From contig CM000153.2 in NCBI GenBank assembly GCA_000004695.1, positions 2,944,001 through 3,008,000 on the forward strand: a stretch of DNA of 64,000 nt. The letters run 5' to 3'. A program made the translations under genes and the position numbers. A model generated the notes under the pieces. That model was not told the DNA's origin and made no database searches. It worked only from the letters and a program-made list of their open reading frames with translations. The DNA is from Dictyostelium discoideum. Lineage: Eukaryota. This document shows positions 46,906 through 51,260 of this stretch, piece by piece (within the stretch, counting starts at the first letter, position 1; each line of letters starts with the position of its first letter).

Positions 46906-47704
46906 ATGAAATTAATATTATTTATTTTATTAATAATTTCCATTAAATCAATTATTGGACAAGATTTATATGTCAATTTTGTCCCATTTCTAACAGAGAA
47001 ATGTAATGAACAACCATTTGGTATTGGATTTTCAATTTTATCAGGTATGTATATTATGATAGAATTAAAATATAAAAATTAAATAAAAATTTAATTTTTA
47101 ATTATTAATTTAAAATAAAATTTTTAAAAATTTAAAAGGTATCTGTATAAACAACTTAGGAAGTTATTTACAAAATGATGAAGTAACTCCTTCATCATGG
47201 TATTTTAAAATTACTGAATATGAACAAACAACAATAATAACTGGTTATAATTATCCTGAAATTGATTGTAGTGGATTTCCAGAGGTTTCAAGATTTGTTT
47301 ATGGAGTTGAGTGTGTTAATAGTCCTGTAATTGTTCCAATTAATGCAACATTCTCTGGAGGTTATAAATATAGTTCCTATTACACTCATGTCACCTTATC
47401 AAAAGTACCAATGTTTTCTGATGACTCTGTAGTTCGTGGTGTTTATTCAAATGATGAAAGCTCTACAGATGGAAGTGTTGATTCATGTACATTTGATAAT
47501 TTTATTTATGGTACTGTAATAACAAAAAATTTCCAAATCAGCTATCAATTCCCATTTGACTATTCCGAAACATATTCATGTTCTTCAAATGGTACTTCAT
47601 TATTAAAAACCTGTGTTGGAAATGAAAAGTGCTATCAAAAAAATATTTCAATGCAGTGTAATTCTGATGAATCAGATGGGCATACCCAAATTTTTTGTTC
47701 TTAA
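46906..47704 (+). CDS. Secreted cysteine-containing protein, paralog 1; join(46906..47044,47139..47704).
   Basis: Signal peptide MKLILFILLIISIKSIIGQ. Exon 1 ends ...GIGFSILS plus donor GTATGT (47045). Acceptor AAAAG at 47137-47138 gives G-ICINNLGSYLQNDEVTPSSWYFKITEY... and the frame continues into ORF 47411..47704, ending ...CNSDESDGHTQIFCS*. Confidence 0.7.
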
Positions 47705-48340
47705 CTTTTTTGGTTAATTTAAAAAAAATAAAATAAAATAAAATAAAAATAATTATTTGGATTTTTTTTTTAATTCCAAATCAACACATAAAAAAACCAT
47801 TTTTTAAGTTTTTAAAATTATCTATATCTAAACTATCTATATTTTTTTTTTTTTTTGATTATCTATTTCAGTTTTGTCTAATTAAATGACCAAATTTCAT
47901 TTTCTAATGATATTTATTAATTTTATTAAAATTAATATGGGAAAAAAAGACTTAAAAAAAATTTTGAAAAAAAAAAAAAAAAGGGGGAGGGGTAGTTTCC
48001 CATACAAACTACCCCTCTTTTTTTTTTTTTTTTTTATAACAAAATAATTTAAAATTAATAATTATCTCATATTATCTTTTAAAAAAGAGATATAAAACAA
48101 AAAATAATGTTTTTATAAATAAAAAAGTGGATACATTTAGTTGATATTTTACCTATTTTTTTTTTTTATAAAGATTATTTCTAAAAAATATTTTTTTTCT
48201 CTTTATTTAATAGTTTAAAAAAATGATTTTTTATGAGATATTTGTTCACATAAAAATTTAGGATGACGACCTATGAAAAGTTTTTCTTTTTTTTTTTTTC
48301 TTTATTTTTTTTTCTGTCCAGTACTAAACCCCCAAATTTG

Positions 48341-48388
<48 letters not shown>

Positions 48389-48420
48389 TACCATATAATT
48401 CTTATTTACTTTTTAAAAAT

Positions 48421-49347
48421 ATGAAATACATAATTTTCATTATTTTATGTTGTAATATACTTGCCCAAAGCCAAGTTATTAATTTTGAACCATTTTTATC
48501 TGGTGAATGTTATGGTGTACCTTCTGGAATTGGGTACTCTGTACAAGCTTGTAATTATTGATTTTAGTAAAAACAAAAAAAAAGAACATTTTTGTTTAGT
48601 GCTACTAATAATAACGACCACAAAATTGATTTATTTTTAATTTTAGATCAATGTATAAATAATATTGGAAGTTTTTTCAATGTTGGTCAATATGATTATC
48701 AATCATGGTTTTTCGGTATTACAACAGAACCAAATGGTGGGTTCACTATTTATGCAAATAGTTATGAACAAGAGAATTGTACAGGTGAAATAGGTGCTAC
48801 ATTTGATTTTGGAAATGGAGACTCTTGCACAACAACAGAATTATTTGTTTCAATCAATGCAACCTTTGATAAAGTTTATAACTTAAGTTCATTATACTCA
48901 TATGTAACCATTTCAAAATATCCGCACTATACAGATAATTCAGTTGTATATGAAGTTTTTTCAACTGACTCACCTGGATCATCATCTGGTTCATCATCTG
49001 GTTCGTCATCTGGTTCATCATCTGGTTCATCATCAGGTTCATCATCTGGATCATCATCTGGTTCATCATCTGGTTCACCATCCGGATCATCATCATCATC
49101 TTCATCATCCAAATGTAAAAACTATGAACACTTCTTGTATGCAGCCTTTGTTACAGATGGATTAGAAATTGATTATAAATCATATAAATCACCATCTGGT
49201 TTAAAAGAGACATATAATTGTGACAAAGGTATTCCAATTATTAATTATTGTGCCCCAAATAAAAAATGTTATAATAAACATATCGAAACAACTTGCAACT
49301 CTAAAGTATCCCCTTCAACATATACAAATATTTTTTGTTCAAAGTAA
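48421..49347 (+). CDS. Secreted cysteine-containing protein, paralog 2, with a (GSS)n linker expansion; join(48421..48550,48647..49347).
   Basis: Signal peptide MKYIIFIILCCNILAQSQ. Exon 1 ends ...GIGYSVQA plus donor GTAATT (48551). Acceptor TTTTAG at 48645-48646 gives Y-QCINNIGSFFNVGQYDYQSWFFGITTEP..., collinear with paralog 1 and with the intron in the identical position. Ends ...CNSKVSPSTYTNIFCSK*. Confidence 0.7.

Positions 49348-49553: not shown

Positions 49554-51260
<1,707 letters not shown>

Follow-up and report, generated by a model that had tools for sequence, protein, structure and literature searches.

Previously, a bacteriolytic activity directed at Klebsiella and confined to about pH 2 was purified from extracts of Dictyostelium discoideum (Guilhen et al. 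2021, PMC7886984). Five DUF3430 proteins, BadA to BadE, were found in the active fractions; overexpression of BadA raised the bacteriolytic activity and its depletion lowered it, whereas purified BadA by itself was inactive (PMC7886984). BadA, the only family member studied experimentally, contributes to bacteriolysis at acid pH in phagosomal and lysosomal extracts, and the Bad family comprises 54 members in D. discoideum, all with a signal peptide and at least eight conserved cysteines (PMC7886984). Here, we describe two adjacent genes, gene 1 (46906..47704) and gene 2 (48421..49347), located in a 64,000-nucleotide stretch of the D. discoideum genome (assembly GCA_000004695.1, contig CM000153.2, positions 2,944,001 to 3,008,000 of the forward strand), which is referred to as the window and whose coordinates are used throughout. 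The two genes are, with near certainty, a tandem-duplicated pair from the same family, Pfam PF11912 (CfaA_B_C, formerly DUF3430). The complete account that explains the locus best, a tandem PF11912 pair with a presumed accessory role in the killing or digestion of bacteria and with a Gly-Ser-Ser-Ser (GSSS) spacer in gene 2, is put forward with moderate confidence.

Both genes lie on the same strand and consist of two exons each, which after splicing give open frames of 234 (gene 1) and 276 (gene 2) amino acids. Their features are as follows.

46906..47044, forward strand: exon 1 of gene 1 (DDB_G0285237), with the predicted signal peptide MKLILFILLIISIKSIIG, NFVPFL, the first conserved cysteine (C33) and GIGFS; it stops after base 1 of codon 47.
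47045..47138, forward strand: intron of gene 1, 94 nucleotides, GT..AG (GTATGT...AAAAG), phase 1, with a read-through stop at 47080-47082.
47139..47704, forward strand: exon 2 of gene 1, from CINNLGSY to QIFCS and the stop codon, with nine of the ten conserved cysteines and the short linker NDESSTDGSVDS (residues 151-162).
48421..48550, forward strand: exon 1 of gene 2, with the predicted signal peptide MKYIIFIILCCNILAQ, NFEPFL, the first conserved cysteine (C30) and GIGYS; it stops after base 1 of codon 44.
48551..48646, forward strand: intron of gene 2, 96 nucleotides, GT..AG (GTAATT...TTTTAG), phase 1, placed at the same aligned codon as its counterpart in gene 1.
48647..49347, forward strand: exon 2 of gene 2, from CINNIGSF to NIFCSK and the stop codon, with nine conserved cysteines and the expanded linker.

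No other combination of donor and acceptor sites keeps the frame, and read-through of either intron meets a stop codon. In both phase-1 introns the split codon lies two residues ahead of the cysteine of CINN, and this junction is kept in D. firmibasis (introns of 91 and 134 nucleotides) and in a second D. discoideum strain (87 and 98 nucleotides) despite the differing intron lengths. The gene 1 product is identical, letter for letter, to the D. discoideum AX4 protein DDB_G0285237 / Q54NJ0, which identifies the window as nuclear DNA of this species. In an independent chromosome-scale assembly, products of 234 and 276 amino acids were called at the same two places, and the splice model of gene 2 was reproduced there. 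The region is very AT-rich, with a GC content of 29-35% in the exon-like blocks and 10-20% in the introns and spacers. Support for the proposed introns comes from the identity with a curated protein, the read-through stops, the conservation of the junction in three genomes and the contrast in GC content.

A full-length BLASTP comparison of the two products revealed 32% identity (E 3e-35). With the signal peptides and the Ser/Gly linker removed, the identity was 36.7% over 218 columns (119 bits, E 2e-38), as against 23 bits or less in 100 shuffles. Because the alignment survives the removal of these parts and exceeds the shuffled controls, the similarity is no artefact of low complexity. All ten cysteines of the two mature chains are aligned with each other. 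A preliminary description, made from the letters of the DNA, had proposed a tandem pair of paralogous secreted proteins with an identical intron position, and a pairwise alignment of the spliced products had been set beforehand as the test of this proposal. The products match end to end outside the low-complexity regions, and the pairing is further upheld by the sister position of the two genes in a neighbour-joining tree and by their adjacency in conserved synteny; the introns do share one phase and one aligned codon. The shared motifs that had been listed, NFVPFL/NFEPFL, GIG[FY]S, CINN[LI]GS[YF] and SW[YF]F, are present in both proteins, whereas the C-terminal NIFCS is found in gene 2 only (NIFCSK), gene 1 having QIFCS. 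A third family copy within the window was rejected, since tblastn matches there were limited to gene 1 and gene 2.

Both proteins scored above the curated gathering threshold of PF11912 (28.6 bits; 206 model positions), with 119.8 bits for gene 1 (E 2e-34, model positions 1-202) and 107.1 bits for gene 2 (E 1.6e-30, model positions 1-205). No other Pfam family was found in either protein, whether scanned whole or as halves. Among 29 aligned family members, 28 matched PF11912 and no other model was matched consistently. The alignment of these 29 sequences contains ten invariant or near-invariant cysteine columns, which include all ten cysteines of both genes; the ten cysteines per mature chain compare with the at least eight conserved cysteines expected of PF11912. 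The aromatic content expected of this family and its Y/FxxxxC motifs were found as well, with aromatic residues at 14-15% and two or three [YFW]xxxxC motifs outside the signal peptide. The preliminary description had recognized a signal-peptide-bearing, cysteine-rich family of extracellular type, and had overlooked that this family was already named and published. As both genes belong to the described Bad family and at least gene 1 is annotated, the finding itself is already known.

A profile search that was exhaustive over 1.84 billion representative proteins, with the database orthologues as the query, returned 26 matches at E ≤ 1e-3. Two of these are unrelated repeat proteins, P0019 with 13 CBM14 repeats and P0032 (judged from sequence); the others are almost all about 190-260 amino acids long and have a signal-peptide-like start. 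The ten matches whose source names were looked up are all hypothetical proteins of Dictyostelium or Tieghemostelium; of the others, one lies on a contig of assembly GCA_000203815.1 and one on a metagenome contig. Judged from the sources looked up, the PF11912 family appears to be essentially restricted to dictyostelids, and Phytophthora proteins have been mentioned as relatives (PMC7886984). Word-indexed searches with gene 1, gene 2 or an alignment of the two retrieved nothing beyond orthologues from the D. discoideum species group. Another PF11912-related pair of AX4, DDB_G0279817 / DDB_G0279815 (P0041/P0044), has adjacent locus numbers, and one of its members is truncated (148-149 amino acids) and kept in several strains. 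On the basis of this pair, tandem arrangement and partial copies seem to be common in the family.

In D. discoideum strain ACTFIR, D. cf. discoideum and D. firmibasis, the locus tags of the two orthologues are consecutive. In D. firmibasis, the order DEAH-type helicase, gene 1, gene 2, desaturase (reverse strand), Med31 and Oxidored_q6 is identical to that of the window. Since gene 1, gene 2 and their neighbours are all retained in D. firmibasis, the duplication predates the split between D. discoideum and D. firmibasis. In the neighbour-joining tree (Poisson distances, 500 bootstraps), the orthologue groups of gene 1 and gene 2 were each monophyletic (100%) and were sister to each other (96%). 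Beyond these two groups, DICPUDRAFT_155049 (P0014) from D. purpureum was the closest homologue (E 9e-30). The intron adjacent to CINN is absent from other family members: one from D. purpureum has no intron, and in the one from GCA_000203815.1 a phase-1 intron lies about 11 residues further upstream. As DICPUDRAFT_155049 has the CINN-adjacent intron and these other members do not, the common intron is a trait of the subfamily that was passed on when the genes duplicated.

Strain ACTFIR contains the relic of a third copy that resembles gene 1; it lies upstream of the ACTFIR orthologue of gene 1, at a distance of about 1.5 kb (L003 1049-1135). What is left of this copy is the 3' end of the intron and 29 codons from the start of exon 2 (ICINNLESYLQNYQGTPSSWY; 69% identity, E 3e-8), and beyond these codons the frame is broken. 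Since the relic has no counterpart in the window, it points to recent local duplication and decay at this locus. The synonymous differences between ACTFIR and the window amount to 6-10% (synonymous divergence, dS, of 0.064 and 0.105), which seems high for one species, and ACTFIR may be a cryptic lineage.

The ratio of non-synonymous to synonymous divergence (dN/dS) of gene 1 was 0.14 against the other strain and 0.17 against D. firmibasis; the corresponding values for gene 2 were 0.40 and 0.36. Judged by these ratios, both copies are kept by purifying selection, with a non-synonymous rate in gene 2 about twice that of gene 1. This doubled dN/dS, the large strain-variable repeat with an additional 9-nucleotide duplication, and the absence of the exact gene 2 protein sequence from the protein collection searched might be taken to mean that the second copy is decaying towards a pseudogene while a microsatellite overruns its loop. 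However, the frame and all ten cysteines of gene 2 are intact in six taxa, its dN/dS of 0.36-0.40 is well under 1, and all repeat variants keep the reading frame. In addition, the insertion lies in a predicted flexible loop and the promoter-proximal spacer is conserved between strains. Decay of gene 2 is therefore hardly credible, and its status as a pseudogene was rejected on the intact frames and dN/dS. Two tandem repeats lie in exon 2 of gene 2.

48970..49109, forward strand: coding microsatellite, with the 12-nucleotide unit TCATCTGGTTCA in 10.4 copies at 89% matches (Tandem Repeats Finder, 48970..49094), followed by (ATC)8 to 49109.
49174..49191, forward strand: 9-nucleotide perfect tandem duplication, two copies of TATAAATCA, giving an extra YKS in the window only, as compared with five orthologues.

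The microsatellite encodes (GSSS)8-GSPS-GS8 within a 50-residue linker that joins the N-terminal beta subdomain to the C-terminal one. The acquisition of a Ser/Gly linker by copy 2 had been noticed in the preliminary description, which gave the unit as GSS in a perfect repeat; the unit is in fact GSSS (12 nucleotides) and the DNA repeat is 89% matched. Measured from the conserved VYEV[FY]S to the fifth conserved cysteine, the gene 2 linker differs in length between taxa, and gene 1 has 12 residues at this position.

D. firmibasis: 14 residues.
D. citrinum: 19 residues.
D. dimigraforme: 19 residues.
D. cf. discoideum: 25 residues.
D. discoideum, analysed window: 50 residues.
D. discoideum strain ACTFIR: 105 residues.

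Because the orthologues in four sister taxa have 14-25 linker residues, the Ser/Gly tract is a later acquisition of gene 2. Comparison of these sequences indicates that a Ser-rich loop became a slippage-prone 12-nucleotide microsatellite in D. discoideum proper only, where it is now length-polymorphic. Coding simple-sequence repeats are very common in the D. discoideum genome, and the expansion of the linker is therefore unremarkable. An independent Ser/Gly/Asp insert is found beside the same cysteine in P0017, and it is the sole comparable low-complexity insert among the 29 aligned members. With this insert at the same place and the low confidence of the loop in the structural model described below, the inter-subdomain loop is evidently tolerant. 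The GSSS tract would be a flexible spacer, probably O-glycosylated, which would have been born by replication slippage, a frequent process in so repeat-rich a genome, and is probably near neutral. Ser-rich, possibly O-glycosylated spacers are typical of secreted or surface proteins of Dictyostelium. A loop between beta subdomains that tolerates 12 to 105 residues is useful for tag insertion or the choice of construct boundaries.

Both proteins start with MK and a 13-residue hydrophobic core (mean Kyte-Doolittle 2.7) followed by polar Q/S, and a hydrophobicity scan revealed no later transmembrane-like segment or hydrophobic C-terminus in either of them. Each protein has three N-glycosylation sequons. 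The computed isoelectric points of the mature chains are 4.3 and 4.8, and the computed net charges shift from about -13 and -7 at pH 6.5 to about +13 and +17 at pH 2.

For structural modelling, AlphaFold2 with a nine-sequence orthologue alignment produced an unusable result (predicted local distance difference test, pLDDT, of 37), and the 29-sequence family alignment was used instead. The resulting model of gene 1 had a pLDDT of 85.7 and a predicted template modelling score (pTM) of 0.81. The predicted fold is all-beta: about nine strands are followed by a loop and by a C-terminal part of seven strands. The single dip in confidence (mean pLDDT 59) covers residues 151-160, the loop where gene 2 carries the repeat. 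A Foldseek search of the model against PDB gave no match below E 0.1, with template modelling scores of 0.29 or less; nothing was found among the BFVD viral structures, and a sequence-profile search of PDB produced one marginal match, a lipocalin. The model and these searches are an indication that PF11912/Bad proteins may have a fold without a solved structural relative.

An alternative view of the structure, published as a speculation on the family (PMC7886984), is a MiAMP1-like fold, that is, a Greek-key barrel of the beta-gamma-crystallin type, which would permeabilise bacterial membranes directly. The aromatic/Cys spacing is similar, SOPMA predicts eight strands in the first half of BadA (PMC7886984), and [YFW]xxxxC motifs occur in the products of both gene 1 and gene 2. 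However, hhalign of the family profile against MiAMP1 (sequence verified as that of PDB 1C01) gave a probability of just 0.08%, and no MiAMP1 or crystallin chain was present among the structural matches listed, making this fold very improbable for the pair. Since neither the profile nor the structure comparison revealed the double Greek-key barrel, a place in the MiAMP1 / beta-gamma-crystallin superfamily is not supported.

The C-terminal part, which contains six cysteines, could also be viewed as a chitin- or glycan-binding module that would be carried on a Ser/Gly stalk in copy 2, giving both proteins a role in extracellular adhesion or carbohydrate binding, which the preliminary description had suggested as a possibility. 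The family profile matched the protein with 13 CBM14 (peritrophin-A) repeats 12 times, at profile positions 180-213, and hhalign against one CBM14 unit gave a probability of 45% over 24 columns, corresponding to a two-Cys hairpin (TYxCxxNGxxxxxxC). The bacteriolysis data would likewise agree with binding to glycans of the bacterial wall. However, PF01607 matched neither C-terminal half nor any of the 29 family members, and a glycan-binding module appears quite unlikely. The suggestion of adhesion or carbohydrate binding thus received no support, the family being PF11912, whose studied member BadA contributes to bacteriolysis at acid pH.

Both proteins would enter the endoplasmic reticulum and form five disulfides. 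They would then be delivered to lysosomes or phagosomes and/or secreted into the medium, and, by analogy with BadA, would act there as acid-stable accessory factors that help to kill or digest ingested bacteria. Since purified BadA alone is not lytic, accessory factors are envisaged rather than autonomous lysins. The computed switch in charge would be compatible with binding to anionic bacterial envelopes in acidified phagosomes only; the argument is weak because any acidic protein behaves alike. On the analogy with BadA, a bacteriolysis-related role of both genes is a tentative proposal, somewhat short of probable.

Several points weigh against such a role. The N-terminal signal peptide was judged by hydrophobicity alone, and these N-termini are best termed signal-peptide-like. 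Gene 1 and gene 2 are not among BadA-E, and neither identifier occurs in the searched supplements of PMC7886984. In a full-text search of the literature, DDB_G0285237 was unmentioned and no expression, localisation or activity data were found for either gene. Both genes share about 22-29% identity with other family representatives, and because this identity is so low, function may differ within the 54-member family. The higher dN/dS of gene 2 could reflect relaxed constraint. Finally, the Pfam name refers to counting-factor-associated proteins and thereby suggests a place in extracellular signalling complexes instead of a part in killing.

The family name CfaA_B_C is also the starting point for a different function, in which the two products would be secreted components or partners of extracellular signalling complexes, similar to CfaA/B/C, and would modulate group size, proliferation or cell-cell signalling. 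A signal-peptide-like N-terminus without a membrane anchor or hydrophobic C-terminus agrees with this function, ten disulfide-forming cysteines suit an extracellular protein, and a Ser-rich, possibly O-glycosylated spacer is a property of secreted or surface Dictyostelium proteins. However, the literature search surfaced no functional study of CfaA/B/C, the matches to 'counting factor-associated protein' were not traced to their protein, and the sole experimental data for the family concern bacteriolysis (PMC7886984). In addition, Dictyostelium secretes lysosomal proteins too, so that co-purification with a secreted complex is not discriminating. Overall, a signalling function is considered unlikely, and the bacteriolysis-related role is the one that we prefer.

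A more far-reaching version of the preferred role, which we regard as rather doubtful, can be drawn from the model. The PF11912/Bad domain, as modelled from gene 1, may be a disulfide-stapled all-beta fold without a solved relative, unrelated to MiAMP1 or the crystallins, which would aid lysis at pH 2 by a new mechanism, possibly an acid-triggered reversal of charge. Gene 1 and gene 2 would then be a young, sub-functionalising branch of the family, with a strain-variable glycosylated spacer that changes the reach between the subdomains.

The two paralogues are separated by a spacer that also has several features of its own.

47705..48420, no strand: spacer between the paralogues, 716 bp, AT-rich, with the 3' region of gene 1 and the promoter of gene 2.

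Most of this spacer is conserved in another D. discoideum strain, the exception being a block of about 140 bp that is replaced there and in which a GC-rich palindrome lies. The palindrome (47969-48035) is perfect and is set in homopolymer runs, A16-GGGG-GAGGGGTAGTTT-cccatac-AAACTACCCCTC-T18; it is unique in the window, and its hairpin is predicted at -34.5 kcal/mol (z -5.4). Scans of the whole window for tRNA and Rfam families were empty, the palindrome having no match in either. It is present in a second assembly (L001) that encodes identical gene 1 and gene 2 proteins, and is absent from ACTFIR and D. firmibasis, where other sequence, or none, stands in place of the block of about 140 bp. 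The palindrome may be a small lineage-specific insertion. Upstream of gene 2 (48100-48340), blocks that are not pure A/T, for example AAAAAAGTGGATA, TTTAGGATGACGACCTATGAAAAGTTTTTC and CTGTCCAGTACTAAACC, are conserved between two D. discoideum strains with a gene dS of about 0.06-0.10, and these blocks are candidate promoter elements of gene 2. Directly downstream of gene 2, and convergent to it, is a multi-exon cytochrome-b5 / fatty-acid-desaturase fusion gene on the reverse strand (49558-51250) with a 458-residue product. The genes for Med31 and then Oxidored_q6 (complex I 20-kDa-type) are found beyond the desaturase, collinear with D. firmibasis.

For genome annotation, these results are routine: both genes had been called before, gene 1 under a locus name in AX4, and the family has featured in Pfam and in publications since 2021. 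The pair provides a dated example of the growth of the 54-member Bad family by local tandem duplication with retention of the ancestral intron. The confident model of a family member without a solved structural relative contradicts the analogy with MiAMP1. Only two by-products are mildly novel, namely the spacer, which varies between strains and lies in a tolerant loop, and the indication that no solved relative exists for the Bad/DUF3430 fold.

Compared with known systems, gene 1 and gene 2 resemble CBM14 / peritrophin-A (PF01607) in a local two-Cys beta-hairpin, which is similar to the centre of CBM14. However, their pattern of cysteines is different, and they lack a Pfam or structural match to this family, so they are not members of it. 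With MiAMP1 (the Macadamia antimicrobial peptide, PDB 1C01) and the beta-gamma-crystallins they have in common a small, secreted, disulfide-rich, all-beta nature in an antimicrobial context. MiAMP1, in contrast, has 76 amino acids and 3 disulfides as against about 215 amino acids and 5 disulfides here, and there is no detectable similarity in profile or fold. DICPUDRAFT_155049 agrees with the pair in its ten cysteines and in the position of its phase-1 intron, but it is a single gene in another neighbourhood (adjoining exportin-T and ribosomal L9), and its position as outgroup to gene 1 and gene 2 had only 46% bootstrap support. CfaA, CfaB and CfaC (counting factor-associated proteins A/B/C), the namesakes of PF11912, share the Pfam model that gene 1 and gene 2 match over its full length. 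Gene 1 and gene 2 differ from BadA-BadE in being distant paralogues that were not purified with the activity, and in the 50-residue Gly/Ser linker of gene 2, but they belong to the same Pfam family and the same organism, and have the same architecture, a signal peptide and one cysteine- and aromatic-rich domain of about 200 amino acids, in proteins of similar size (210-260 amino acids).

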